Virus record (IMG/VR): IMGVR_UViG_2925908680_000001
Reading direction: 5' to 3' (one strand)
Origin: a virus
Taxonomy: Duplodnaviria > Heunggongvirae > Uroviricota > Caudoviricetes
Length of the DNA: 64,000 nucleotides
The translations under genes and the position numbers were made by a program. Positions 1-46,549 of the stretch are shown here, piece by piece. Below the pieces are notes generated by a model. That model ran no database searches, was not told the DNA's origin, and worked only from the letters and a program-made list of their open reading frames with translations. How positions within the stretch are numbered: the first letter of the stretch is position 1; each line of letters starts with the position of its first letter.

Positions 1-96
1 GTTATGCATCCCCTGTTACCGAATTGCAGCCAGGGCGCGGTGCGCCGAAAAGCATACGGAGGTGGAAGCCCTCGCCGGAGACGTACCCGGCACAGT

Positions 97-173
97 GGTG
101 GTGTAGCTCAGTAGGATAGAGCAGCAGCCTTCTAAGCTGTCGGTCGGTGGTTCGAATCCACCCACCATCGCCA
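97..173 (+). tRNA. tRNA-Arg (anticodon TCT)
   Basis: Cloverleaf by eye: 7-bp acceptor (one GU), anticodon loop cttctaa, T-loop ttcgaat, encoded CCA; resembles E. coli argU. Confidence 0.85.
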
Positions 174-178
174 CTTTA

Positions 179-265
179 GGGGAGTTAGTCCGTAGGGGTA
201 GCGGGGTAGACTGTAAATCTACTGTCATTGCGACTCGGGTGGTTCGACTCCATCACTCCCCACCA
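179..265 (+). tRNA. tRNA-Tyr (anticodon GTA), class II with long variable arm
   Basis: Perfect 7-bp acceptor ggggagt/actcccc, perfect anticodon stem gtaga/tctac with loop ctgtaaa, long variable arm, T-loop ttcgact, CCA; D-arm less regular. Confidence 0.7.
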
Positions 266-269
266 AATT

Positions 270-345
270 GCCGGTTTAGCTCAGTTGGTAGAGCAGTCGC
301 TTTGTAAGCGAATGGTCAGCGGTTCGATCCCGTTAACCGGCACCA
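270..345 (+). tRNA. tRNA-Thr (anticodon TGT)
   Basis: Acceptor gccggtt/aaccggc, D-arm gctcagttggtagagc, anticodon loop tttgtaa, T-loop ttcgatc, CCA. Confidence 0.85.
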
Positions 346-353
346 ACACAACA

Positions 354-427
354 GGTAAGAGCATTTGTAGAGTTCGACTCTCTACCGTGGGCTTTTTCCC
401 GCGATGCGAGCCATAAATGCTCTTACC
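354..427. repeat. Inverted-repeat element 1 (13-bp arms ggtaagagcattt / aaatgctcttacc) enclosing a T-arm-like hairpin
   Basis: Arms at 354-366 and 415-427; inner hairpin gtagagttcgactctctac; followed by conserved motif gttgtgatgaagtgc. Confidence 0.6.
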
Positions 428-574
428 GTTGTGATGAAGTGCAGCTCTTTGAAGCAACCAGAAGATAAGCATCTGGCTTCACAACATAAACCGCAGGAAC
501 GACCAATAAACGGTAGTCCGTATGGAGAACACCCCGTTGAGGAAGAGGCCTGGCCGGAACCGTAACCGGCACTA

Positions 575-664
575 CAATGTTGAGAACACTGGCGTAACGG
601 GGTCATATCCCAATCTACGAATAAATGTTGCGTTGCAGCGTGACAACCAGTGTTCTCAACATTG
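575..664. repeat. Inverted-repeat element 2 (perfect 18-bp arms, 54-bp spacer)
   Basis: caatgttgagaacactgg at 575-592 and exact reverse complement at 647-664; followed by attgtggtgaatgcgc. Confidence 0.7.
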
Positions 665-799
665 TGGTGAATGCGCAGGCTGATGCGCGAAAGACATTGC
701 AGCTATTGCGGAAAAGAGCTGTTCGGCGGGGCAATTAAACGCCCGTGAGAGTCTGAAATAACCGCAAGCCGGAGATCAGCACCGGTCGCCACAATAACG

Positions 800-886
800 G
801 GAGAGTAGGGAGCATGGTGCTCAAGCGGTCTTGAAAACCGTCCCATTGCGCAAGCGATGATGGTTCGATTCCATTACTCTCCGCCA
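800..886 (+). tRNA. tRNA-Ser (anticodon TGA), class II, atypical A at position 8
   Basis: Acceptor ggagagt/actctcc, anticodon stem gcggt/accgt with loop cttgaaa, long variable arm, T-loop ttcgatt, CCA; D-arm irregular. Confidence 0.65.
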
Positions 887-893
887 GTGCAAC

Positions 894-1011
894 GTTAAGA
901 GTATTTGGCTAATTAAGCGAATGCCGGAAGCAGAACCGGATCACCAAATGCGTACAGGCGTCATCGCCGCCCAGCCAGCCAAGTGCTCTTACCATTGCGG
1001 TGAATGCGGCT
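894..1011. repeat. Inverted-repeat element 3 (imperfect arms) plus conserved right-end motif
   Basis: gttaagagtatttgg at 894-908 vs ccaagtgctcttacc at 979-993; followed by attgcggtgaatgcggc, the same motif family as elements 1 and 2. Confidence 0.5.
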
Positions 1012-1369
1012 AAGCGCACGCGGAACAGTTAAAACAATCCTCCTTAGTGGTTAAGTCAAACATCCCGGCGTTAATTGTTAACTGGTTAACGTCACCTGGA
1101 GGCACCAGGCACCGCAATCTAATAAAGTTTCAAGCAATGGAGTTTTTGTTGTCAGACTTCAGATATAGATGGTTGTGGAAGGAGAGCCTGTGCATAGTGC
1201 AGTTATTTCTTCCGCTATTTGTCTGCTTTGTCATGCTTCCTGAGCTGAAATACGCAATTTCAGACACTTTAAGCACTATCGTTACTTTTGTGTTTTATCT
1301 TTACTTTGATTACTTATTGAGCACTAAAATCAATGAATTATCCGAGGAAATGCAAGGTGGCTGTAAGTG

Positions 1370-1498
1370 ATGAATTTTTGGGCGTTTGCCGATAAGAACC
1401 CTGGTTGGACATTTTTATTTCTGCTGGTGGTTGCATATGGGGTCGAGCAAGCGGCAAAAGCCTTACGCGGTTCTGGCAAAAAGCGTAAGCGGAATTAA
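1370..1498 (+). CDS. Small hydrophobic peptide (42 aa), hypothetical
   Basis: Hand-translated ORF MNFWAFADKNPGWTFLFLLVVAYGVEQAAKALRGSGKKRKRN: one predicted TM segment and a basic tail; below the ORF-track size cutoff. Confidence 0.3.
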   Translation: MNFWAFADKNPGWTFLFLLVVAYGVEQAAKALRGSGKKRKRN

Positions 1499-1507
1499 CA
1501 GTAATCT

Positions 1508-1583
1508 GGCCCTTTAGCTCAGTGGTTAGAGCAGGCGACTCATAATCGCACGGTCACCGGTTCAAATCCGGTAGGGGCCACCA
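1508..1583 (+). tRNA. tRNA with CAT anticodon, most like tRNA-Ile2 (ileX type)
   Basis: Near-identical to E. coli ileX as recalled (ggcccnttagctcagtggttagagcaggcgactcataatcgc...), CCA encoded; Met cannot be excluded. Confidence 0.85.
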
Positions 1584-2037
1584 TATTTGGTTGTAACACG
1601 GCGTATGGCACATGCGTCGTTAGCGGTCTGGTGTAGCTGTTAGGTACCTTACTAACACTGCATGGGCACATCAGGTAGCCGGAATGTGCAAGTCACCGCT
1701 GGAGGGATAGCGGACTCAGGGACTCACCATCCTGGCGATTCGGTGTGACAGCCGGAATAGCACGGCGCACAACAGGAAAAGGCGTTTAATTAACGCGAGC
1801 GCCGTTTCCGTTGTGGTAATTGCGGCTATGCGCTCGTGACGAAGCCATTTTCATTCACTACGTTCTGATAAGTGACGTCGCCAGGAGTGGCTAACCTGGC
1901 AGGTGGAGGCACCACCGCCACAACTCCTTTCAATTCATCATATAGCCGCTCAGGCTGTACCCCTTAATTAATACGAAGTTACGACATCACTACCGGCACT
2001 TCCGGGGGATAGTCGCGCGTGTAAAAAAGGAGACGTT

Positions 2038-2613
2038 ATGTTAATGGCGAACGATAACGCATATGCAGAAGAAGATCTCATTTTGAGTGACTTCATAGGG
2101 AAGCGGGAACGCTGGACCAAAAAGCGAGAGGAACTTTACGCCTCATTAGTTCGCAAAGGCGTCAATATCGAAACCGCACAGAGCGGTGATATGACAGTGG
2201 TAAGCGTGGGATTGCACGGTGTAAGCGTGTCAGCAATCAATCATGAGCCATACGTTGCGTTATCCGAGTCAATGGTAAGGTTAGTTAAGTTCCTGAAATA
2301 CACAGAAGCGAATAATGTAATCATTGGCAAAAAGAATATCCCTTTTTCCTCGGCTTTTTACTGGATGATGAAAGGGCTTGATGCCCGGCGGACATCATGG
2401 CCCAAAGGGAGCTATATATCGATGTTCCGTGGCAGTATTGGCAGCAAAGAAAAGCTCTTCGAATTCTTGCCGGAAGAGGCATTCGATATTGTGGAAGGGT
2501 GCGATGTGATGGTGATGCCTCGCCTGGTAATGATGAATGGGGATTTACAGGCGCAGACAGACTGGTTTGCAACTGGTGTGGATATAATCGCGACTGACTG
2601 GGAGGCTTTCTGA
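2038..2613 (+). CDS. Hypothetical protein with DUF2829-like C-terminal domain
   Basis: ORF track; C-terminal pattern FSSAFYWMMKGLDARRTSWPKG ... DLQAQTDWFATGVDIIATDWEAF fits the DUF2829 family signature as recalled; RBS ggagacg before ATG. Confidence 0.55.
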   Translation: MLMANDNAYAEEDLILSDFIGKRERWTKKREELYASLVRKGVNIETAQSGDMTVVSVGLHGVSVSAINHEPYVALSESMVRLVKFLKYTEANNVIIGKKNIPFSSAFYWMMKGLDARRTSWPKGSYISMFRGSIGSKEKLFEFLPEEAFDIVEGCDVMVMPRLVMMNGDLQAQTDWFATGVDIIATDWEAF

Positions 2614-3005
2614 TGTACGGGACTACCAAATTAAGCACTCAACAGGCCACCAATATGGAGTGGTCTATCGCTAACTGTAAGATCGTGTCATGCAATGCCA
2701 CGCGTACTGATGTGGGCCATAAAAGTACTATAACAGGCTATCTAGTAATGACCACCAGGGGGATGAGGGTTAGATTTCGCTGGAAAGCAGAGCAAGTAAC
2801 GCCATTCAGAGAGCCATCAATGCCGCTGCAGGTTGAGCAGGATTATCTATGTTTACCAGAAATAGATGGAGGAATGCTGGTGGAGTCTGATGGTAGTAAG
2901 GCTGATTTTGAAGCCAATTTGAAGCTGGCACAGGCCGTAATCAATAGTTATCGCGGAAAGTGGATCGCAAAAGTGAAACATGTTGTTCGTTTGTCTCGCT
3001 GGTAG
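2613..3005 (+). CDS. Hypothetical protein
   Basis: ORF track; start overlaps upstream stop (ATGA coupling). Confidence 0.5.
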   Translation: MYGTTKLSTQQATNMEWSIANCKIVSCNATRTDVGHKSTITGYLVMTTRGMRVRFRWKAEQVTPFREPSMPLQVEQDYLCLPEIDGGMLVESDGSKADFEANLKLAQAVINSYRGKWIAKVKHVVRLSRW

Positions 3006-3023
3006 CGTTAGGTGTTTAATATT

Positions 3024-3040
3024 AATTTTCTAATATAATC
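3024..3040 (+). promoter_or_regulatory. Operator-like motif aattttctaatataatc (C1-operator-like family)
   Basis: Member of a recurring TTTCTAAYA motif; lies about 75 bp upstream of ORF 3114. Confidence 0.4.
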
Positions 3041-3113
3041 ATCTTTTTACCAGTCTATACAGTTTTAACATTCTCATTATCATCCCCTCGGTCATTTCCT
3101 GCCCGGGGGATTA

Positions 3114-3506
3114 ATGGAACAAATCAGCAGCGCAGAAATTGCGGATATCATGATCAGGGCTGACTGCTATCTGACAGTCACTGAAATTACCACTCTCGCC
3201 AAAGAAAAATACCCTCATCTCCATGTTTCACGAGTAAGTGTAACTAACATCATTCGTCATTTTGTTCGTTCAAGCAGGGCAATCTGTGAGCTGGATGATC
3301 GTGTGTATCCACGAAAATACTGGCTACATGGTCTGAACGGATATCAGTTCAAGGTGCGCGGGCGCACGCCTGAATACGGTAGCTTACTGGTTAAAAACTG
3401 TAGCAGGAAATCAGTCGAACAGGCGCGAAAAGAGCAACGAGAGCTGGTGGACATGGCGAATAAGCTGTGGAATGCCGCCGTTAAAAAGCGTGGTGTTGCT
3501 TTATGA
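3114..3506 (+). CDS. Hypothetical protein; positional analog of P1 late-promoter activator Lpa (unverified)
   Basis: ORF track; immediately upstream of pacA as lpa is in P1; operator-like motif upstream. Confidence 0.5.
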   Translation: MEQISSAEIADIMIRADCYLTVTEITTLAKEKYPHLHVSRVSVTNIIRHFVRSSRAICELDDRVYPRKYWLHGLNGYQFKVRGRTPEYGSLLVKNCSRKSVEQARKEQRELVDMANKLWNAAVKKRGVAL

Positions 3507-4867
3507 GTCTGGTTAATTGGGAGGAGCACCGCGCCCGCTTTATAGCGTTGCGTGAAGAAAAAGGGATCACTGTAAAGGAATACTGTGAGGAGCATGGCCT
3601 TAGCTTCAATACAGCCAGAAAGCATCTCAATATGAAAAAAAATGAGGTGCGGTCGCAGGTAAAGACAACAAAAAAAAGCACCAAATCACCTGAAAAAAAA
3701 CGGGCGGGAAGAGCAACAAAAAAGCTGGAAGAGGGTGCAGAAAAAACAAAATTTACAGAAATTGACAATTCTCAGGGCGCAGGTTCTTTCCGAAGTATGC
3801 CGAGAAAGAAAACTTCGGATCATGAAAATAATGCAAATAATAACAATGAGATAAAAGAATCTGTCAGGAGATCATTGCGCGAAAAAATGGCGAAAATGAT
3901 CCCCGAAGAAGATAAAAGCGCCCCAAAAATTGAGGGATCTTCTGCAATGATCCCTGACGGTGCTGTGCAGCGTGCCACATTGCCCACTACGAATGTGGCT
4001 CGCGATATGATGAAGAACGGCGCAGAAGAACACCTGCGGTTAGCAATTCAAATGGCGCAAGAGCGCGCACTTCAGTATCAAAGCATTGTTGATCAGGAGG
4101 CCGAACGTCTACAGGCGGAAATAGACGCCTTGGGCGATAAAGAGCCAGAAGGAATGCACCCTGGGCAGCGCCTTCTCGGTCTAATCAGTGACGCGGCCTA
4201 CTACATGAATGATTTTATCAGTAGGTTGGCAGCTATATATCAGTCCGAACAAAAGCTGCGACAGGGGGATGAAAAGCTTCGTCAGAGCGCTCGCCAGCAA
4301 GCATTCAAAGAGGCTGAGGCCAGAGAAAAACTCGAATTAGCACGCCTACAGGCCGAACAGCGTGGCAAAGAGATTGAATATCGCATTGGCGCTGACGCAC
4401 GCGCAGCCAGAGTTATCGCCGCCGCTATACGTATGCGTGAGCGCGAGGAACTGGATGATATCGGTGTTGCTGAATACATCGAGCGCCAGGGGGTCAGCGT
4501 CCCGGCTATCCTCGCGGCGCGCGCGGCGAAAGCTATCACTCTTCTCGAACCACCTGTTTCTGACGTCAATGATGTTGATGATGAACAGCTGGACAAAGAG
4601 GCAAGGGAGTTTGCAACGCTTCAGGCTAACCATCCGCAATGGCTGGCAGAGCGCCGGGCGGATGTGGCAACCATTGTTGAAGAATTGGGGTGCGGAGATT
4701 ACGATCGCAATGGCGAGCGTAAAGCTGGAGAATTCGAGGCCAACGACGAAGAGCTGGATATTGACCCTTCGGCAACGGCTGAAATTTACGGTGATTATGA
4801 TGTATCTGATGCAGGGTATGACGCCGGAGATGATGATATCGCGATAGAACCGCCGGAGGATGATTAA
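3503..4867 (+). CDS. pacA: Terminase small subunit, PacA-like
   Basis: ORF track; overlaps start of the large terminase; basic N-terminus and acidic C-terminal tail; synteny with P1 pacA-pacB. Confidence 0.55.
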   Translation: MSLVNWEEHRARFIALREEKGITVKEYCEEHGLSFNTARKHLNMKKNEVRSQVKTTKKSTKSPEKKRAGRATKKLEEGAEKTKFTEIDNSQGAGSFRSMPRKKTSDHENNANNNNEIKESVRRSLREKMAKMIPEEDKSAPKIEGSSAMIPDGAVQRATLPTTNVARDMMKNGAEEHLRLAIQMAQERALQYQSIVDQEAERLQAEIDALGDKEPEGMHPGQRLLGLISDAAYYMNDFISRLAAIYQSEQKLRQGDEKLRQSARQQAFKEAEAREKLELARLQAEQRGKEIEYRIGADARAARVIAAAIRMREREELDDIGVAEYIERQGVSVPAILAARAAKAITLLEPPVSDVNDVDDEQLDKEAREFATLQANHPQWLAERRADVATIVEELGCGDYDRNGERKAGEFEANDEELDIDPSATAEIYGDYDVSDAGYDAGDDDIAIEPPEDD

Positions 4868-6375
4868 TGGCTGGCGGGCGCAAGATTAAATGCGTCACCA
4901 GCGATCCACGCTGGCGCGATATGGTAATCAAATACCGCTACAACTTTACCCAGGCTGTTGTCGATATTTTTGGGATGTTCCCCTCCCACCAGCAGCAGCA
5001 GATCATTCAGTCAGTGCAGGAAACGGGGAGTAGGACGACCGTCACGTCCGGACACGGAACGGGGAAGTCGTCCCTTACCGCGATGTTGCTGTTGATTTTT
5101 ATGATCCTGTTCCCCGATGCCCGTGTCATCATTGTTGCTAACAAGATAGGCCAGGTAAAAACAGGCGTATTCAAATACGTTAAACAGTATTGGGCGAATG
5201 CAGTTAAGCGTCATGGGTGGTTGCAGACCTATTTTGTCCTCTCTGACACCATGTTTTATGAGCGCTCCCGTAAGGGGATTTGGGAAGTTCTCTGCAAAGG
5301 TTATCGACTCGGCAACGAAGAAGCGCTGGCGGGGGAACACGCGGCACATTTGCTTCTAATTCTGGATGAAGCATCTGGTATATCTGATAAGGCGATCGGC
5401 GTAATGACCGGTGCTCTTACTGAAGAAGATAACCGGATGTTGATGCTATCCCAGCCAACAAGGCCAAGTGGTTATTTCTACGATTCGCACCATTCTCAAG
5501 CAAAAACCCCAGACAACCCGAAAGGGATCTGGACAGCAATTGTTCTTAACTCGGAAGAATCACCGTTCGTCACACCACAATTCATCAAGCAGAAGCTTCT
5601 GGAATATGGTGGGCGCGATTCTATTGAGTATATGGTCAAGGTGCTTGGTCAGTTCCCACGAGAAATTAACGGCTATTTGCTTGGTCGTGATGAATGCGAT
5701 CGCGCTGCTCGCCGCAAGGTGTTGTTGGAGAAAAACTGGGGATGGGTGGCAACGGCTGACGTTGGTAATGGGCGAGATAAGTCGGTCCTCAACATCTGCA
5801 AGGTATCTGGTCACAGGGATAAGCGGCGCGTTGTTAACTTTAAGGTAATGGAGATGCCTGGCACTATGGACCCATTGGCCTTTGCTGACTTTATATATAA
5901 CGAATGTACGCCGGAAAAATACCCGAATATAACAATCGCGGTTGATGCCGATGGTTTTGGTTCTGATACGTGTGCGCAGTTGGTGCGTCGTGGTGCGAAC
6001 CCGGTACGTATTCGGTGGGGAAAACCCATGTTTGCGAACAAAGACAGGGAGCGATTTGTTAATCAGCGTGCCTACGCAAATATTATGGCGCGTGATGCCA
6101 TAAAGTCAGGGCGTATGCGGATAGACAGTGACCCAAAAACGGCAGAGCAAGCGTCAAAAATCCCCTTTTTACTGAATGAGGAAGGGAAAATGGCGATGAT
6201 GCGCAAAGAGCACATGCGGCAAAAGCTAAACATCAAATCGCCTGACCGATGGGATACCTACTGCTTCACTATGCTGGTGGACTATGTGCCTGCTAATGAA
6301 GATATTGGTGCCGAAATGGCAACTTTCCGAGATCAGGTTCTGGCGGATATCGAAATGCCAGATCTGGATATATAA
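4867..6375 (+). CDS. pacB: Terminase large subunit, PacB-like
   Basis: Walker A SGHGTGKSS and Walker B LLLILDEASG in the translation; 502 aa. Confidence 0.85.
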   Translation: MAGGRKIKCVTSDPRWRDMVIKYRYNFTQAVVDIFGMFPSHQQQQIIQSVQETGSRTTVTSGHGTGKSSLTAMLLLIFMILFPDARVIIVANKIGQVKTGVFKYVKQYWANAVKRHGWLQTYFVLSDTMFYERSRKGIWEVLCKGYRLGNEEALAGEHAAHLLLILDEASGISDKAIGVMTGALTEEDNRMLMLSQPTRPSGYFYDSHHSQAKTPDNPKGIWTAIVLNSEESPFVTPQFIKQKLLEYGGRDSIEYMVKVLGQFPREINGYLLGRDECDRAARRKVLLEKNWGWVATADVGNGRDKSVLNICKVSGHRDKRRVVNFKVMEMPGTMDPLAFADFIYNECTPEKYPNITIAVDADGFGSDTCAQLVRRGANPVRIRWGKPMFANKDRERFVNQRAYANIMARDAIKSGRMRIDSDPKTAEQASKIPFLLNEEGKMAMMRKEHMRQKLNIKSPDRWDTYCFTMLVDYVPANEDIGAEMATFRDQVLADIEMPDLDI

Positions 6376-6376
6376 A

Positions 6377-6393
6377 GCCCCGCTATGCGGGGC
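6377..6393. terminator. Hairpin between convergent pacB and ORF 6403-7440
   Basis: gccccgc-tat-gcggggc stem-loop; weak U-tract. Confidence 0.4.
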
Positions 6394-6402
6394 CGGTTGT
6401 GA

Positions 6403-7440
6403 TTACCAGAGCTTCGCGGCGTACTGCGTTTGGGGGAATGTGTATCCGTAACGTTCTTCGATTGCTTTGCCGTATTTTTTACGAGCTTCATTCAGTTTAA
6501 TGCCGGTCAGGTCGTCTCCAGAGGCCATCATTACGTCTAACAATTCCAGATCCATTTTATCTAGCCTTGCCATTGCTTCACGTGATGTACGTATCTTACG
6601 CTCAATGATATGGCGAATAGCCGGATCGGCATCCTCCAGCATCTTAGCGGATTTCTGCTTAAGGCTTTCATTGCGAATATCGATGTTCCTTAAGATGTAC
6701 GACTTCGCAACGTAGCTTGGCTGGTGTTTTTCTAGGTCACGAACACGATATAAGTTAAAATCGCCGAGAAGGCTGCAAGGTACCGATTCGACGCCAGAAT
6801 AAATTGTAATGCTCCGGCGTTCACCAACATTATTGACAACGGGGATCGTTGTCTTCGGTAGTCTTGCGAAAACCAATGCGCCATGTGCGCCAACTCTAAA
6901 GCGAGAAAGGGCATTGCTGCCTTCGATGTTTGTTGTCAGCACAACATCTGTATATGCCTCTTTACGCGCCCGGTAGATCTCGCCTTCAGGCTCAGCTTCA
7001 AAGAAGCGCTGTTCTTCTTCAAGAGCACCTACAATTTGAGAAAAAACCCTATTTTTCAGGCTTTTCTTTATGATTTTGTCGTATTTTTTGAGCAATTGTT
7101 CACGTGTAAATGTACGTGTTGTTGTAGCGCTTTGCACAACAACATGCGTGCTTTGATTGGTGTCCTCAATGATGAATGGGATCGGAGAATATACAGACTC
7201 AACAATGTTCGACGCTTTGCCGTCGGCATCGCGGCACATGTCAACGAAGGCTTTCCATTCAGCAAGACATTTTTCAGCTTCTTCTAATATGTTTTGGTCA
7301 TGCGTTAATGCAACATGGCGGAATTCCTCGCCAGCATAACTGGTATCATGGAAAACAGAGTTTGCGACCACCAGCTCTTTCCACCGTTCAGCGGTTTGCA
7401 GGAACCGTTTGTACTCTTTCTCGATCGACTTCTTACTCAT
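6403..7440 (-). CDS. Hypothetical 345-aa protein occupying the position of P1 c1/coi (candidate immunity repressor or accessory defence gene)
   Basis: ORF track; no motif recognised by eye; convergent with pacB, divergent from dre; operator-like motif 17-35 bp upstream of its start. Confidence 0.6.
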   Translation of the reverse strand: MSKKSIEKEYKRFLQTAERWKELVVANSVFHDTSYAGEEFRHVALTHDQNILEEAEKCLAEWKAFVDMCRDADGKASNIVESVYSPIPFIIEDTNQSTHVVVQSATTTRTFTREQLLKKYDKIIKKSLKNRVFSQIVGALEEEQRFFEAEPEGEIYRARKEAYTDVVLTTNIEGSNALSRFRVGAHGALVFARLPKTTIPVVNNVGERRSITIYSGVESVPCSLLGDFNLYRVRDLEKHQPSYVAKSYILRNIDIRNESLKQKSAKMLEDADPAIRHIIERKIRTSREAMARLDKMDLELLDVMMASGDDLTGIKLNEARKKYGKAIEERYGYTFPQTQYAAKLW

Positions 7441-7456
7441 TATTCCTACTCGATTT

Positions 7457-7475
7457 AGTTTTCTAACATAAAATT
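7457..7475 (+). promoter_or_regulatory. Operator-like motif agttttctaacataaaatt
   Basis: Recurring TTTCTAACA motif; immediately upstream of reverse-strand ORF 6403-7440. Confidence 0.45.
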
Positions 7476-7650
7476 ACTATGACAAATTTATGTCGAATAA
7501 CAGAGTGAGTAAAGGATCGAACTGTGATTTTTTGTCATCAATTTTAGAAAACCAACTGTATAAACCACACTTCGCAAATTAAAGACCATGAAGGCAACGT
7601 GTTACTGGTCAAAATCAATCTATGATGGATTAAAAAAAATCGCCATTTTG

Positions 7651-7682
7651 TAACTTTAAATAATTGGCATTATTTAAAGTTA
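7651..7682. other. rox site-specific recombination site (Dre target)
   Basis: taactttaaataat-tggc-attatttaaagtta: 14-bp perfect inverted arms around a 4-bp spacer; equals the reverse complement of rox as I recall it; 150 bp upstream of the recombinase gene. Confidence 0.9.
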
Positions 7683-7834: not shown

Positions 7835-8863
7835 ATGAGTGAATTAATTATCTCTGGCAGTTCCGGTGGTTTTCTGCGCAACATTGGCAAAGAGTACCAG
7901 GAAGCCGCAGAAAACTTTATTCGGTTCATGAATGACCAGGGGGCTTATGCGCCGAATACACTGCGCGACCTCCGGTTAGTGTTTCATTCCTGGGCGCGCT
8001 GGTGTCACGCTCGCCAGCTTGCCTGGTTTCCGATCTCACCAGAAATGGCCCGCGAGTATTTTCTTCAGCTGCATGATGCCGATCTGGCTTCGACCACCAT
8101 TGATAAGCACTACGCCATGCTGAACATGCTGCTTTCGCATTGTGGCCTTCCGCCACTTTCGGATGATAAAAGTGTTTCTCTGGCTATGCGGCGCATCCGG
8201 CGCGAAGCGGCAACTGAAAAAGGCGAACGAACAGGCCAGGCTATTCCTTTGCGGTGGGATGATCTGAAACTGATCGACGTCCTGTTGTCCAGGTCAGAAC
8301 GGCTGGTGGACCTGCGCAACCGGGCTTTTCTCTTTGTTGCATACAATACGCTGATGCGTATGTCGGAAATCTCGCGTATTCGCATAAGAGATCTGGACCA
8401 AACAGGTGACACTGTCACGTTGCATATTTCACACACGAAGACAATAACGACCGCAGCCGGGCTTGATAAGGTGCTTTCCCGTCGCACTACTGCTGTGCTG
8501 AATGACTGGCTGGAGGCTTCCGGGCTTCGTGAACATCCTGACGCGGTGCTGTTCCCGCCGGTACACCGTAGCAATAAGGCCAGGATTACGGCAACGCCCC
8601 TTACTGCGCCTGCAATGGAGAAAATATTCAGCGACGCCTGGGTGTTGCTGAATAAAGGAGATGCTACGCCAAACAAAGGAAGATACCGGACGTGGACCGG
8701 GCATAGTGCACGCGTCGGGGCCGCTATCGATATGGCTGAAAAGCAGGTATCTATGGTGGAGATTATGCAGGAAGGAACCTGGAAGAAACCGGAAACACTT
8801 ATGCGGTATCTGCGCCGTGGCGGCGTGTCTGTGGGGGCTAATAGCCGCCTGATGGATTTGTGA
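7835..8863 (+). CDS. dre: Tyrosine site-specific recombinase, Cre family (Dre-like)
   Basis: 342 aa; Cre-like layout including C-terminal WTGHSARVGAA and MRYLRRG segments; adjacent rox site. Confidence 0.92.
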   Translation: MSELIISGSSGGFLRNIGKEYQEAAENFIRFMNDQGAYAPNTLRDLRLVFHSWARWCHARQLAWFPISPEMAREYFLQLHDADLASTTIDKHYAMLNMLLSHCGLPPLSDDKSVSLAMRRIRREAATEKGERTGQAIPLRWDDLKLIDVLLSRSERLVDLRNRAFLFVAYNTLMRMSEISRIRIRDLDQTGDTVTLHISHTKTITTAAGLDKVLSRRTTAVLNDWLEASGLREHPDAVLFPPVHRSNKARITATPLTAPAMEKIFSDAWVLLNKGDATPNKGRYRTWTGHSARVGAAIDMAEKQVSMVEIMQEGTWKKPETLMRYLRRGGVSVGANSRLMDL

Positions 8864-9281: not shown

Positions 9282-9754
9282 AAACTTATTACCCATCTCT
9301 GAATTGTTACCCGTCTTCCTATCCAGAATTGTCCGGGAAGCTGTTAGCTCTATTAGCTAAAGCACCTACGGAATGGTTTAAGCCAGTCGTTATTAATCCG
9401 CACTTCCAGGATTACGGATCTGTTCGTACTCGTAACGAACTCAAAAACCTACTGGCGCATGGATTCATTCGACACCGTGCCGGGAAAGGCTATCAGTTAG
9501 CGATTGCGCCAGAAGAGGCCGTGCGGCTATTCGCATATCGTGACAGCCAGACAAAAGCTCGGGTAATAGCTCAAATACTTCATAACGGCAGCACCTATGC
9601 CCGCCAGTTTGGCGGCGACACGTCGCAGTTCTTGCGGGCGGTGCGATCGCTGGAGGAGCAAGGAGTTATTGAAAGTTCCTGTCTTCCTGTTCCTACCGTT
9701 CCACATATCAAACGTCGGGTTTACACCTTCACGCAGAGAGCTAAAAAACTATGA
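9278..9754 (+). CDS. Hypothetical protein
   Basis: ORF track; GTG start overlapping upstream stop. Confidence 0.45.
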   Translation: MKTYYPSLNCYPSSYPELSGKLLALLAKAPTEWFKPVVINPHFQDYGSVRTRNELKNLLAHGFIRHRAGKGYQLAIAPEEAVRLFAYRDSQTKARVIAQILHNGSTYARQFGGDTSQFLRAVRSLEEQGVIESSCLPVPTVPHIKRRVYTFTQRAKKL

Positions 9755-10245
9755 TTTACGTAAAAGTGAAACGCCTACATCCGGCAGCAAAACTTCCAGC
9801 TTATGCCACCTCCGGATCGGCGGCGATGGATTTTGAGGCTGTTGAAATAACACCATGCGTCGATAGCAATGGTGAAATTTCCTCAAGCTGGTGGGTGCAT
9901 ACCGGACTGGCTATGGAGATCCCGCCCGGCTGGTGTCTGAAACTCTATCCGCGCTCCGGGTTGGGTTGCAAAAAACATACCCGCCTGGCTAACTGCGTAG
10001 GAATTATCGACTCCGATTATCGCGGTGAAATCATGGCAAAACTGATTGCTGATCCCGGCGGGGAAGGCGTTTGCCTCAAGCCTGGAATGGCTGTTATGCA
10101 AGGCATTTTTGAGCGTGTTGAACAAGTCTCACTAGTCGAGGTTGAGGAACTCAACGAAACGGAACGTGGTGCTGGTGGCTTTGGTAGCACATCGGAAGGC
10201 CACTTTGAAATTAAGCGTTCACCGCTTCAGTACGAAAAGTTATAA
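9751..10245 (+). CDS. dut: dUTPase (deoxyuridine triphosphatase)
   Basis: Trimeric dUTPase motifs GIIDSDYRGEI and RGAGGFGSTS in the translation. Confidence 0.85.
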   Translation: MIYVKVKRLHPAAKLPAYATSGSAAMDFEAVEITPCVDSNGEISSSWWVHTGLAMEIPPGWCLKLYPRSGLGCKKHTRLANCVGIIDSDYRGEIMAKLIADPGGEGVCLKPGMAVMQGIFERVEQVSLVEVEELNETERGAGGFGSTSEGHFEIKRSPLQYEKL

Positions 10246-10259
10246 GCAGAGAAAAGACT

Positions 10260-10910
10260 ATGAATAACATGGCAACGAAAGAGCTTTTTAAGGTCCTTCC
10301 CAAATACAAAGCTCACAAAAACGTTAGTGCATCGAAAATCAAAAATGTTGTTATTTTCGGAGTAACTGATGACCCACTTTGGGGCTGCATCGAACTCGTT
10401 GAACCCAAAGGGGCAACAGTTTGTGTTGACGCAATTTTTTTACAAAAACACCGACCAAAAACTGGCGGGTATCTGATCGTTTATGAAAACGGTTATCTGT
10501 TCTATGCCCCGGAGAAACCATTTGAGCAATGCTATGGCCTGGTTAACGACGCCTCCGAAAATGGGGTATCGCTCAGCATTGAAGGTCACAATGGGGTGAC
10601 ATTCATTACAGCCAGGGACGTAACTATTGCTGTCGGTGGCATCATTACCACACAAGAAGAAATCGACCTTGAAGCAGCCGACTTTTCTGACGCGCTAATG
10701 TGGCTGAAAGAAGGAAAAAATGTAGCTCGACGCGAGTGGAAAGGCGAAAAGCAATTCTGCTGGTTAGTTCTCGCTGGGAGCGTCAATTTACATGACATTC
10801 AGGTTCCTTATGGTGACCATTTTGTGTTGAAAGATGCACAAAATATAAACAGCGTTTGGTTGCCGTCTGTTGATGATTTACTGGCTTGTGACTGGTTTGT
10901 AGTGGAGTGA
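10260..10910 (+). CDS. Hypothetical protein with C-terminal DUF2829-like domain
   Basis: C-terminal FSDALMWLKEGKNVARREWKG ... WLPSVDDLLACDWFVVE fits the DUF2829 signature as recalled; about 120-aa N-terminal extension. Confidence 0.55.
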   Translation: MNNMATKELFKVLPKYKAHKNVSASKIKNVVIFGVTDDPLWGCIELVEPKGATVCVDAIFLQKHRPKTGGYLIVYENGYLFYAPEKPFEQCYGLVNDASENGVSLSIEGHNGVTFITARDVTIAVGGIITTQEEIDLEAADFSDALMWLKEGKNVARREWKGEKQFCWLVLAGSVNLHDIQVPYGDHFVLKDAQNINSVWLPSVDDLLACDWFVVE

Positions 10911-12222: not shown

Positions 12223-12603
12223 TCAAGTCTTGGAACCATATAGTTCACGTAGCTTTTCTGCGACTGAAGATACGGCGATTTCACCAGTCGCAGCCCCTAC
12301 AGTAAGGTCTGCCAGTTCAGGTGAATCAAATACCTGCACCCCGTTACGGCGTAGAAATAGCAGCGCACTGTTTAGCGCGGTACGCTTATTGGCATCATTG
12401 AATATATGCCCTCTCGCTGTAGCCACCAGGTAGGTGGCGGAGACTTCGAAAAGGTCGGTGATCTCTTCGTAGGCAACTCTGGCCTGAACTCTCCCGATAA
12501 TGGCCTCTGCCCTGCCCGGATCTGACATGCCAGGCAGGCCGCCGTAGCGGCTTATATTCGCATCATGAAGCGCAATAAGTTCTTCCGGTGATATATGCCT
12601 CAT
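12223..12603 (-). CDS. doc: Doc toxin (Fic/Doc family kinase)
   Basis: 126 aa; I recognise the P1 Doc sequence pattern; coupled to phd. Confidence 0.9.
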
Positions 12604-12824
12604 TATCGGTTAACCAGTTCCTTGTTGGTGGAGTCCAGGGTGTCAAACAGGGATGCAAATTCAGCATCCAGCGCCGCTTTTTTGTAGGCTTCGAAAGTAG
12701 ACTTGCTGACAATTACTGCTGGCTCACGGCCTCTGCGGGTGATTTCAACCTCTTCCCCGGCTTCAACATTGTTGAGCACTTCAGAAAGGTTGCCGCGCGC
12801 GGTACGGAAGTTAATGGATTGCAT
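12603..12824 (-). CDS. phd: Phd antitoxin
   Basis: 73 aa from [39 protein letters not shown]...; stop overlaps doc start. Confidence 0.9.
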
Positions 12825-12896
12825 AAACACCTCGTGTACTCGTTATGTGTACACAATTATAAACCTCACAGGCATAAAGCACCAGCCCTTTGCAGC

Positions 12897-13286
12897 TTAA
12901 ATAACCGGACAATCATCAAACTCCCCAATTCGGGCATCATTGATGACATGAGTGATCACACCAAAAACAGCATTACTGCCCGTGCATCCATCGTCATCTA
13001 CTGGTAACGCCTCTTTCTTCCCGGTGCTTAAATCCTCCAGGTGCTGGCGCGGATACTTCCTGTATCTCTTTATGCGATATTCACCCTCCATAGCGCAGAC
13101 AAGTAGCGAACCATCAACCGGAGTAAGTGAGGAATCGACCACCAGCAAAGCACCCTGCAATATTCCCTCACGGTGATGGCTATCAGCTGCCCGCATGAAG
13201 TAGGTTGCTGATGGATGCCTGATTAGTTGCTGATCAAGAGAAATTCGGCTTTCAACATAATCCGCCGCAGGAGAAGGGAAGCCCAT
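12897..13286 (-). CDS. humD: UmuD-like protein (HumD homolog, S24 peptidase family)
   Basis: 129 aa; UmuD-prime-like sequence; LexA box directly upstream; humD-phd-doc synteny as in P1. Confidence 0.75.
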   Translation of the reverse strand: MGFPSPAADYVESRISLDQQLIRHPSATYFMRAADSHHREGILQGALLVVDSSLTPVDGSLLVCAMEGEYRIKRYRKYPRQHLEDLSTGKKEALPVDDDGCTGSNAVFGVITHVINDARIGEFDDCPVI

Positions 13287-26654: not shown

Positions 26655-26870
26655 ATGGCTACTATCCCTACCCCAACTCATTCTGAATTTATCTGGCGTT
26701 TCTATTCCTGCCAAAAACACCTGTATATCTGCGTCATGGCTGCTACCGAAGCAGAAGCTCGTTCATACCTTCCTGAAGAACCCTGCATTTTTGCCGCACG
26801 CTTCACTCTTGATGCGATGGAGATCCTAAATTACTGGAATCTGCCAATGAACTGCGTGGAGGTGCACTGA
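26655..26870 (+). CDS. icd: Icd-like host cell division inhibitor
   Basis: 71 aa; immediately precedes and is coupled to the antirepressor gene (TGATG overlap), as in P1 immI. Confidence 0.65.
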   Translation: MATIPTPTHSEFIWRFYSCQKHLYICVMAATEAEARSYLPEEPCIFAARFTLDAMEILNYWNLPMNCVEVH

Positions 26871-27811
26871 TGAATCTGTCCATCTCTCAAAAAGCGACAA
26901 TGACCAGTATTGAGATCGCGGAACTGGTAGGTAAGCGTCATGATAATGTGAAGCGTACCATTGAAGTATTAACTAAAGGTGGTGTCATTCAATTTCCTCA
27001 AATTGAGGAAATTGAAAATAAACAATCAGTTGGCCCTCGTCGATTTTCCAAGGCTTACATATTTGAAGGCGAACAAGGAAAACGAGACAGCATCATTGTC
27101 GTCGCGCAGCTCTCTCCGGAATTCACCGCCCGGCTGGTGGACCGCTGGCGCGAACTGGAGAATGCCCGGGTACAGTTAAAATCAAAAGCCGAAATTCTGG
27201 CTGAAATGGCGCAAATGCATCTTGAGCATGAACGCCGGATCAACGCCGTAAATGCCCAGGTAGCCGAGGTATCAGCACAAGTATCGATGGTCGCTGAAAC
27301 ACTCGAGCAAATCAAGAAAGGCAATATTCCGGAAGGCTACATTGGCTACCGCCAGCTGGCGGCGAAATGTGGCCTGACTGAAGCCAAATGTCGCAACCTG
27401 GTTAACGCTTTCCGGATTCCCACCGATACGCATGAGTTTTTAACTCCAGATGGTTTGCTTGCGCGACGCTCCATTGTGGCCCTGGTCCCCTTCCGGAAAG
27501 CCTTTAAGCAGGTGATGTCGGAGGCAGAACCACGCAATAAACGCTGGTATCATCCAAAGATGGGGATGTTTCAGGCAATCCACCATCCTGTGCCTGAAAG
27601 CCCAAAGGATAATCTGTCACTACATACCGTCAGAGAGAAGATCAGGACTGGATACGCAACAGTGTGTCGTCGTTCTTCCTGGCCTGAAGGTATATGGGTG
27701 TGGCCCGAAGGTGGATCACGAAAGCACTGGCGCACCATCCGTGACGGGAAAATCCATGCTATTGATTTAGCTCCAGAGGATGTTATTGCTATGGACTGGA
27801 TTGTTAGTTAA
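26870..27811 (+). CDS. ant: Antirepressor (Ant-like) with Rha-type N-terminal domain
   Basis: N-terminus MTSIEIAELVGKRHDNVKRTIE; 313 aa; paralog at 45623-46549. Confidence 0.7.
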   Translation: MNLSISQKATMTSIEIAELVGKRHDNVKRTIEVLTKGGVIQFPQIEEIENKQSVGPRRFSKAYIFEGEQGKRDSIIVVAQLSPEFTARLVDRWRELENARVQLKSKAEILAEMAQMHLEHERRINAVNAQVAEVSAQVSMVAETLEQIKKGNIPEGYIGYRQLAAKCGLTEAKCRNLVNAFRIPTDTHEFLTPDGLLARRSIVALVPFRKAFKQVMSEAEPRNKRWYHPKMGMFQAIHHPVPESPKDNLSLHTVREKIRTGYATVCRRSSWPEGIWVWPEGGSRKHWRTIRDGKIHAIDLAPEDVIAMDWIVS

Positions 27812-45407: not shown

Positions 45408-45623
45408 ATGGTTAATGCCAATCCTTGCCCTCGCCCGGAATTTATCTGGCGCTTTTATTCCTGCACAAAACACACCTACATCAGCGTAATGGCAGCTACT
45501 GAGGCTGAAGCGCGTTCATTTCTTCCTACAGATCCGTGCATTTTTGCCGCTCGCTTTAAACCCGATGCTCTGGACGTTTTGACCTACTGGAACCGCCCAA
45601 TGAACTGCGTGGAGGTGCACTGA
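45408..45623 (+). CDS. icd: Icd-like host cell division inhibitor (second copy)
   Basis: 71 aa, about 75 percent identical by eye to ORF 26655-26870; coupled to ant. Confidence 0.65.
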   Translation: MVNANPCPRPEFIWRFYSCTKHTYISVMAATEAEARSFLPTDPCIFAARFKPDALDVLTYWNRPMNCVEVH

Positions 45624-46549
45624 TGAATCTGTCCATCTCTCAAAAAGTGACAATGACAAGTATTGAGATCGCGGAGCTGGTGGGAAGTCGTCATGACAAG
45701 GTGAAACAATCTATTGAACGACTGGCGGGACGAGGTGTAATAGCTTTTCCCCCAATGGGGGAGAAGCCCACCGCAGGCCGCCCGGCGAGCTATTACGTCT
45801 TTGAAGGCGAGCAAGGCAAGCGCGACAGCATTGTTGTCGTCGCACAGCTTTCTCCCGAATTTACCGCCCGACTGGTGGACCGCTGGCGCGAACTGGAGAG
45901 TGCCAAAGTACAGTTAAAATCAAAGGCCGAAATCCTGGCCGAAATGGCGCAAATGCATCTTGAGCATGAACGCCGGATCAACGCCGTAAATGCCCAGGTA
46001 GCCGAGGTATCAGCACAAGTGTCCAGGGTCACTGAAACACTTGAGCAGATCAAGAAAGGCAATATTCCGGAAGGCTACATTGGCTACCGCCAGCTGGCGG
46101 CGAAATGTGGCCTGACTGAAGCCAAATGTCGCAACCTGGTTAACGCTTTCCGGATTCCCACCGATACGCATGAGTTTTTAACTCCAGATGGTTTGCTTGC
46201 GCGACGCTCCATTGTGGCCCTGGCCCCCTTCCGGAAAGCCTTTAAGCAGGTGATGTCGGAGGCAGAACCACGCAATAAACGCTGGTATCATCCAAAGATG
46301 GGGATGTTTCAGGCAATCCACCATCCTGTGCCTGAAAGCCCAAAGGATAATCTGTCACTACATACCGTCAGAGAGAAGATCAGGACTGGATACGCAACAG
46401 TGTGTCGTCGTTCTTCCTGGCCTGAAGGTATATGGGTGTGGCCCGAAGGTGGATCACGAAAGCACTGGCGCACTATCCGAGATGGGAAAATCCATGCTAT
46501 TGATTTAGCTCCAGAGGATATTGTTGCTACGGACTGGATTGTTAGTTAA
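45623..46549 (+). CDS. ant: Antirepressor (Ant-like), second copy
   Basis: 308 aa; C-terminal two-thirds near-identical to ORF 26870-27811, N-terminal Rha-type region diverged. Confidence 0.7.
   Translation: MNLSISQKVTMTSIEIAELVGSRHDKVKQSIERLAGRGVIAFPPMGEKPTAGRPASYYVFEGEQGKRDSIVVVAQLSPEFTARLVDRWRELESAKVQLKSKAEILAEMAQMHLEHERRINAVNAQVAEVSAQVSRVTETLEQIKKGNIPEGYIGYRQLAAKCGLTEAKCRNLVNAFRIPTDTHEFLTPDGLLARRSIVALAPFRKAFKQVMSEAEPRNKRWYHPKMGMFQAIHHPVPESPKDNLSLHTVREKIRTGYATVCRRSSWPEGIWVWPEGGSRKHWRTIRDGKIHAIDLAPEDIVATDWIVS

Follow-up and report, generated by a model that had tools for sequence, protein, structure and literature searches.

What does the gene at positions 2038–2613 of IMG/VR virus record IMGVR_UViG_2925908680_000001 encode, and how is its product related to the protein of the same domain family that is encoded at 10260–10910? 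The window, that is, the whole 64,000-nucleotide stretch analyzed here, belongs to a D6/P1-like enterobacterial phage-plasmid; over bases 1–7666 it matches Escherichia phage D6, itself a phage-plasmid of the P1 type, at 97.4% identity. We show here that the first of these open reading frames (ORFs), hereafter ORF2038, is a functional accessory gene of the element, and that the C-terminal half of its product is a genuine Tad2-like (DUF2829) domain, of the class with a long β2–β5 insertion. The role toward which we lean is that of an antidefense signal sponge, and its ligand-binding pocket, its N-terminal domain, and its evolutionary constraint are considered in turn before that role is weighed against other explanations.

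Results

ORF2038 encodes a Tad2-like protein

ORF2038 is a complete gene on the plus strand in the ORF list. It opens with ATG 455 nt past the last tRNA gene (tRNA-Met), encodes 191 amino acids followed by a TGA stop, and is preceded by the Shine–Dalgarno sequence AAGGAG (2027–2032, plus strand, read from the sequence), which ends 5 nt before the ATG. The product is a two-domain Tad2-like protein homologous to that of orf6 of phage D6; it is 99.5% identical to D6 YP_009914683, which is annotated as a “hypothetical protein,” and gives a full-length match to PHROG 7362 (E = 2e-135), a family of unknown function. The original prediction had placed a DUF2829-like protein here, past the tRNA cluster, and this was confirmed by the match of Pfam PF11195 (Tad2-like, formerly DUF2829) to residues 103–190 with E = 1.2e-9 and 39 bits, the curated cut-off of the model being 25 bits. 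The match spans model positions 3–72 of 73, and PF11195 is also matched by all 27 relatives of ORF2038. Both of the peptides quoted in that prediction were located in the protein, as residues 103–124 (FSSAFYWMMKGLDARRTSWPKG) and residues 174–191 (TDWFATGVDIIATDWEAF). Among 1.84 billion cluster representatives, HMMER found only 29 proteins at E ≤ 1e-3, and PADLOC gave no match for the protein.

An AlphaFold2 model built with the 27 aligned relatives had a mean predicted local distance difference test score of 90; it was used instead of a model built with seven close sequences, in which the N-terminal domain was modeled well and the C-terminal domain poorly. The Tad2 fold is present in the chosen model, with helix α1, an antiparallel β-sheet, the C-terminal α3, and the “DW” strand, and its top structural matches in BFVD are phage proteins named “Thoeris anti-defense 2-like domain-containing.” The Tad2-like domain (residues 103–190; 2344–2607, plus strand) contains the long β2–β5 insertion at approximately residues 129–161, and this long-insertion scaffold, including an LP motif, is common to HgmTad2 and SptTad2.

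The pocket retains two Trp residues and an Asp

The residues that contact ligands were taken from the published sites of SPO1 Tad2 (W25, N26, W73, and D79; 10.1101/2023.05.01.538930) and HgmTad2 (W21, N22, G23, S90, T92, and D93; 10.1101/2023.11.15.567273) and were mapped onto ORF2038 by alignment. In the glycocyclic ADP-ribose (gcADPR) pocket, W21, M76, W87, and D93 of HgmTad2 correspond to W121, M165, W176, and D182 of ORF2038; L88, S90, and T92 correspond to F177, T179, and V181; N22 corresponds to P122; and G23 is deleted. Three of the four core residues of this pocket (W121, W176, and D182) are thus kept, and the fourth, Asn, is replaced by P122. In the cyclic-dinucleotide pocket, K46, S47, F70, and N85 of HgmTad2 correspond to E142, F143, V159, and T174, and R31 aligns with F130/R131. 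Within the clade of two-domain proteins to which ORF2038 belongs (14 members), both pocket Trp residues are invariant and the Asp is kept in 10 of the 14.

The two DUF2829 proteins of the window belong to different lineages

The other DUF2829 protein, ORF10260 (216 amino acids; 10260–10910, plus strand), was located among 545 six-frame ORFs of the window by a local hidden Markov model (HMM) of the ORF2038 relatives (E = 2.4e-11), and its Tad2-like domain (residues 141–215) matches PF11195 with E = 4.2e-18 and 66 bits. A PDB sequence search gave MoTad2 (E = 1.3e-9) and SPO1 Tad2 (E = 2e-5) as its closest solved relatives, and its domain shares 41% identity with MoTad2. At the position of the GWNG loop, which is present in MoTad2 and in more than 90% of ORF10260's own family, ORF10260 has EWKG, and therefore the key Asn is replaced (N to K) in this protein too. 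NCBI names its homologs “DUF2829 domain-containing protein.” The gene is directly preceded by a dUTPase gene (9751–10245), and in some Escherichia coli relatives the DUF2829 domain is fused straight onto dUTPase (P0103, PF00692+PF11195).

The original prediction held that ORF2038 carries a C-terminal domain related to that of the other protein on a different N-terminal module, which agrees with our results. A BLASTP comparison of the two proteins was not significant (E = 0.25), but their family profiles were aligned by hhalign with a probability of 99.3% (E = 3.8e-20); the region aligned with confidence is the C-terminal domain, which matches PF11195 in both. The N-terminal halves are unrelated; they gave no confident mutual alignment, and neither matches Pfam. 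The description of the two domains as diverged copies needs to be amended, however: both are genuine DUF2829 domains, but they share only 18% identity (14/79), whereas the domain of ORF2038 shares 24% identity with HgmTad2 and SptTad2 and approximately 30% (up to 31%) with short “WP-xG” relatives. Because each is closer to other Tad2 proteins than to its counterpart, they represent different Tad2 lineages rather than the outcome of a recent duplication within the element. The ligand-contacting positions of ORF2038 and ORF10260 differ from each other and from those of characterized Tad2 proteins, and such differences between the aligned residues would fit different specificities of the two.

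A further family of proteins in the window bears some resemblance to this domain. A two-gene module, composed of a 71-amino-acid ORF and a Rha-family protein (Phage_pRha), is present twice, at 26655–27811 and 45408–46549, approximately 18.7 kb apart. The Rha proteins (313 and 308 amino acids; 26870–27811 and 45623–46549) are 89% identical, their middle and C-terminal parts being nearly identical, and in their last ~65 amino acids (RRSSWPEGIWVW...DLAPEDVIAMDWIVS) there is a likeness to DUF2829, in its first strands and its closing “DW” motif; the tails contain “RRSSWPEG...DVIAMDW,” with a WP-xG loop as in ORF2038. These C termini were not counted as DUF2829 domains: Pfam was silent even on the isolated 65 amino acids, local HMMs gave E = 0.06–0.33 in the 545-ORF database, and hhalign gave a probability of 35% over 38 columns.

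The N-terminal domain is lineage specific

The model shows an N-terminal domain (residues ~7–96; 2056–2325, plus strand) with the order α-α-β-β-β-α, and this predicted fold is like that of double-stranded RNA-binding domains (dsRBDs) or the phage “ABA sandwich.” The domain is specific to the lineage: Pfam gave no match at E ≤ 10, its profile gave only spurious ankyrin-repeat matches against PDB, and a profile search of 5.8 billion proteins returned only truncated copies of the same gene. The canonical basic motifs of dsRBDs (KKxAK at the start of helix 2 and the GPxH loop) are absent, and the net charge read from the sequence is about −2; dsRNA binding by the domain is therefore not supported. 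Extra oligomerization, a second binding site, or targeting are possibilities for its role.

ORF2038 is maintained by purifying selection in phage-plasmids

Comparison with orthologs of ~91% identity gave a ratio of nonsynonymous to synonymous substitution rates (dN/dS) of ~0.09 (dS 0.4–0.6) for both domains, and the gene is under purifying selection. A tblastn search of PLSDB found relatives on 125 plasmids, from Escherichia (97), Salmonella (16), Shigella (6), Pantoea (4), and Enterobacter (2), of which 123 are non-mobilizable; the gene is intact in 121 of the 125. Among the PLSDB records listed, nearly all are 80–96 kb and one is 216 kb, and a 100% identical protein is encoded on the E. coli plasmid pNCYU-26-73-5 (CP042620.1, 93.7 kb). 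Of 5,426 complete E. coli genomes, 98 carry the gene, in every case on a plasmid of ~90 kb, and it is full-length in 97 of the 98. Among 50,697 phage records, relatives were found in one phage only, D6 (two records), and a scan of genome contigs with the family pattern found no relative. Distant two-domain relatives are encoded in Enterobacter, Klebsiella, Pantoea, and Rosenbergiella, on contigs of ~83–93 kb. A search for related loci with a five-sequence alignment yielded 31 IMG/VR loci, in which the gene stays upstream of lpa-pacA-pacB-c1, with or without orf5, even in relatives that are 43–53% identical.

Some copies are damaged. Truncated or frameshifted variants of the gene were seen (P0006–P0008, P0010), and the ortholog at 3207–3779 of locus L029 (IMGVR_UViG_2534681774_000017) has two in-frame stops and an elevated C-terminal dN/dS of 0.49; in at least one element, the gene seems to be in decay.

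Genes and RNAs around ORF2038

Immediately downstream lies orf5 (130 amino acids; 2613–3005, plus strand, read from the sequence), which matches PHROG 7004, of unknown function, and gave no match in Pfam, PDB, or PADLOC. Its start codon shares bases with the stop codon of the Tad2-like gene (TGATG), an arrangement that suggests translational coupling or co-translation of the two. Close orthologs of ORF2038 have orf5 beside them, but loci L030 and L032, at 43% identity, lack it, and orf5 is therefore not an obligatory partner. The 455-nt spacer between tRNA-Met and ORF2038 (1584–2037) contains no long ORF and no Rfam match, and the orf6–orf5 promoter presumably lies within it. The consensus of the P1 C1 operator had no match with up to three mismatches allowed.

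The gene order of the region is the tRNA cluster, small tci-like ORFs, ORF2038 (D6 orf6), orf5, lpa (3114–3506; Pfam BPP1_LPA, E = 5e-57), pacA, pacB, c1 on the minus strand, and then a Cre-like recombinase, the last being our reading of ORF 7835–8863 as judged from its translation; the D6 record annotates a rox site at the region of this recombinase. On the P1 map, phd-doc stands just upstream of lpa, the position held here by the Tad2-like gene and orf5. Genes that we take from their translations to be doc-like (12223–12603), phd-like (12603–12830), and humD/UmuD-like (12897–13286) are instead found on the minus strand of the window.

Five tRNA genes (Arg-TCT, Tyr-GTA, Thr-TGT, Ser-TGA, and Met-CAT) were detected by ARAGORN and Rfam on the plus strand at 97–1583, and tRNA-Ser(TGA) also scored below the Rfam threshold as tRNA-Sec (43.5 versus 47 bits). 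The D6 record annotates three tRNAs (Asn, Thr, and Ser), and the alignment with D6 is broken into pieces across 97–1583; because the tRNA sets differ and the D6 match is split, the tRNA/tci region differs between the otherwise 97%-identical elements. A sub-threshold Rfam match to the small RNA STnc100 (E = 2e-6) was found at 996–1116, its 39.4 bits falling short of the gathering score of 47; it covers model positions 31–147 of 206 and overlaps the start of a 107-amino-acid ORF (1047–1370).

Discussion

The function that we somewhat favor for ORF2038 is that of a two-domain, Tad2-like antidefense signal sponge with a non-canonical specificity, a role suggested by the precedent of the family together with the retained Trp/Trp/Asp clamp. 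Tad2 homologs are known to bind gcADPR, His-ADP-ribose (His-ADPR), N7-cyclic ADP-ribose, cyclic dinucleotides, and cyclic UMP or CMP (10.1101/2023.11.15.567273; 10.1101/2025.08.24.671296; 10.1101/2024.01.03.573942). The protein would probably oligomerize like the characterized Tad2 proteins and sequester a nucleotide-derived immune signal of a host defense of the Thoeris, cyclic oligonucleotide-based antiphage signaling system (CBASS), or pyrimidine cyclase system for antiphage resistance (Pycsar) type, and the phage-plasmid would be shielded in this way when it infects or is induced. The ligand, perhaps a signal other than canonical 1''-3' gcADPR, would be held by W121, W176, and D182, as the equivalent residues do in SPO1 Tad2 and HgmTad2, while the MoTad2-like ORF10260 would cover another signal.

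Several observations weigh against this proposal. Members of the clade have P, R, M, N, D, G, or H where HgmTad2 has N22, G23 is deleted in all of them, the equivalents of S90 and T92 vary, and the cyclic-dinucleotide-pocket residues R31, S47, F70, and N85 are not conserved. An aromatic/acidic clamp therefore survives and the polar contacts of both known pockets are lost; as read from the alignment, neither pocket is visibly constrained apart from the Trp pair and the Asp. Given that Li et al. found the gcADPR site conserved in ~99% of short Tad2 proteins, the ORF2038 clade is atypical. A scan of 1300–3600 for sigma-70 promoters and terminators gave nothing above the shuffled expectation, and no promoter was identified. 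In the accessible part of the supplementary text of an 84-protein sponge screen, neither ATDWEAF, IATDWE, SWPKG, and related motifs of ORF2038 nor the motif LACDWFVV of ORF10260 occurs.

Since the clade conserves neither of the known pockets, the main rival is that the DUF2829 fold has been reused for a role other than that of a sponge, such as protein–protein interaction or regulation, with the N-terminal domain carrying the main activity. That the N-terminal domain is constrained as strongly as the C-terminal domain (dN/dS 0.07–0.11) would agree with such a role, as would the fusions of DUF2829 with a variety of unrelated modules, dUTPase (P0103) and PF21825 among them, and the multi-domain proteins among the BFVD matches. 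We nevertheless regard this explanation as unlikely, if serious, because a structural ligand clamp (W121, W176, D182, and D187–W188) is retained and all DUF2829 proteins of demonstrated activity in the papers cited here are signal sponges, and because the basic motifs of dsRBDs, which would have lent the N-terminal domain an activity on dsRNA, are missing from it. At the opposite extreme, ORF2038 could act in the canonical way, as a type I anti-Thoeris Tad2 with the same mode of 1''-3' gcADPR binding as SPO1 Tad2. The common fold and family and the conserved pocket Trp, Trp, and Asp speak for this, but the essential Asn (N26 in SPO1 Tad2 and N22 in HgmTad2) is Pro in ORF2038, the Gly next to it is missing, and Val stands in place of T92; the W21A/N22A substitution in HgmTad2 strongly lowers gcADPR binding (10.1101/2023.11.15.567273). 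With the diphosphate-binding Asn-Gly of the GWNG loop lost and T92 replaced by Val, the canonical binding mode is unlikely, and the characterized Tad2 proteins are moreover single domains of ~90–100 amino acids, in contrast to the two domains and 191 amino acids of ORF2038. The canonical assignment as a whole thus seems improbable.

Two further explanations carry very little weight. Decay of ORF2038 into a non-functional ORF might be suggested by the few truncated or frameshifted variants and the two in-frame stops of the L029 ortholog mentioned above, but it is highly improbable in view of the low dN/dS at dS 0.4–0.6, the strong Shine–Dalgarno sequence, and the full-length state of the gene in nearly all of the plasmids and E. 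coli genomes that carry it. Hardest of all to credit is the name “MW1434 family type I toxin-antitoxin system toxin,” for which nothing speaks other than the label itself in some RefSeq and PLSDB records. Type I toxins are small and hydrophobic, whereas ORF2038 is soluble, has two domains, and was modeled with confidence as a globular protein; no NCBIfam model matched it at E ≤ 0.1, the sole listing being an unrelated shikimate-pathway equivalog (E = 0.11; 10.6 bits against a cut-off of 902 bits), Rfam found no antisense RNA family, and the name that these proteins now bear is “Thoeris anti-defense Tad2 family protein.”

A bolder version of the sponge proposal, which we hold to be quite improbable, is that ORF2038 is a fused “double sponge” or a sponge of new specificity, in which a fold of the Acb4-like class is joined to a remodeled WP-xG Tad2 pocket without Asn-Gly. 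If so, each domain could bind its own signal, or the two could jointly bind an undescribed immune signal of Enterobacteriaceae, and together with ORF10260 the phage-plasmid would carry a multi-signal antidefense set. Phage-plasmids of the P1/D6-like type, which spread resistance genes, are frequent in E. coli, Salmonella, and Shigella. Should ORF2038 and ORF10260 both be active and differ as sponges, this would help to explain how the element becomes established despite signaling-based defenses.

The Tad2 family, its fold, and its mechanism are already known, and annotation pipelines have already assigned the gene to the family; RefSeq now labels it “Thoeris anti-defense Tad2 family protein,” although older records have “hypothetical protein” or “MW1434 family type I TA system toxin.” The novelty is modest for this reason, and the payoff is limited because the family, fold, and sponge mechanism are well described. 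What has not been described is the small clade of enterobacterial phage-plasmids with a dsRBD-like N-terminal domain and a “W-P/x-(deletion)-x-G” loop, and because the Asn-Gly loop that is near-universal in Tad2 proteins is missing from it, the clade offers a natural test case for ligand choice in the family.

Among the known systems, the N-terminal domain of ORF2038 has the α-β-β-β-α topology in common with Acb4, the anti-CBASS sponge of SPO1 (PDB 9E4W), and with the phage ABA-sandwich fold (1R7L) and dsRBDs. Acb4 has been described as dsRBD-like, with dsRBDs, RNase III, ribosome hibernation factors, and release factors as neighbors (10.1101/2024.12.30.630793), and the N-terminal domain of ORF2038 retrieves the same structural neighbors; the likeness is at the level of the fold only, with no detectable sequence relationship. 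The C-terminal domain shares its family and fold with SPO1 Tad2 (PDB 8SME/8SMF/8SMG), the founding anti-Thoeris gcADPR sponge, of which the pocket residues W25, W73, and D79 are kept and N26 is not; SPO1 Tad2 is, however, a single 89-amino-acid domain with a short insertion and 19% identity, in contrast to the long insertion of ORF2038. MoTad2/ModTad2 (PDB 8V3E, 9EIB), a sponge for His-ADPR and cUMP, is 23% identical to ORF2038. The long insertion is shared with the sponges HgmTad2 (AcrIIA7) and SptTad2 (PDB 8KBI–8KBM, 8WJC, 8WJD), which are 24% identical to ORF2038 and lack its extra N-terminal domain of ~96 amino acids. ORF2038 departs from HgmTad2 by the change of N22 to Pro, the deletion of G23, and the change of T92 to Val in one pocket, and by the changes of S47 to F, F70 to V, N85 to T, and K46 to E among the cyclic-dinucleotide contacts. 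Even so, the LP motif of the insertion is recognizable (FEFLPEE in ORF2038 versus VKSLPES/VKSLPDA in HgmTad2/SptTad2), and the equivalents of HgmTad2 W21, W87, D93, and D98–W99 are all kept in ORF2038.
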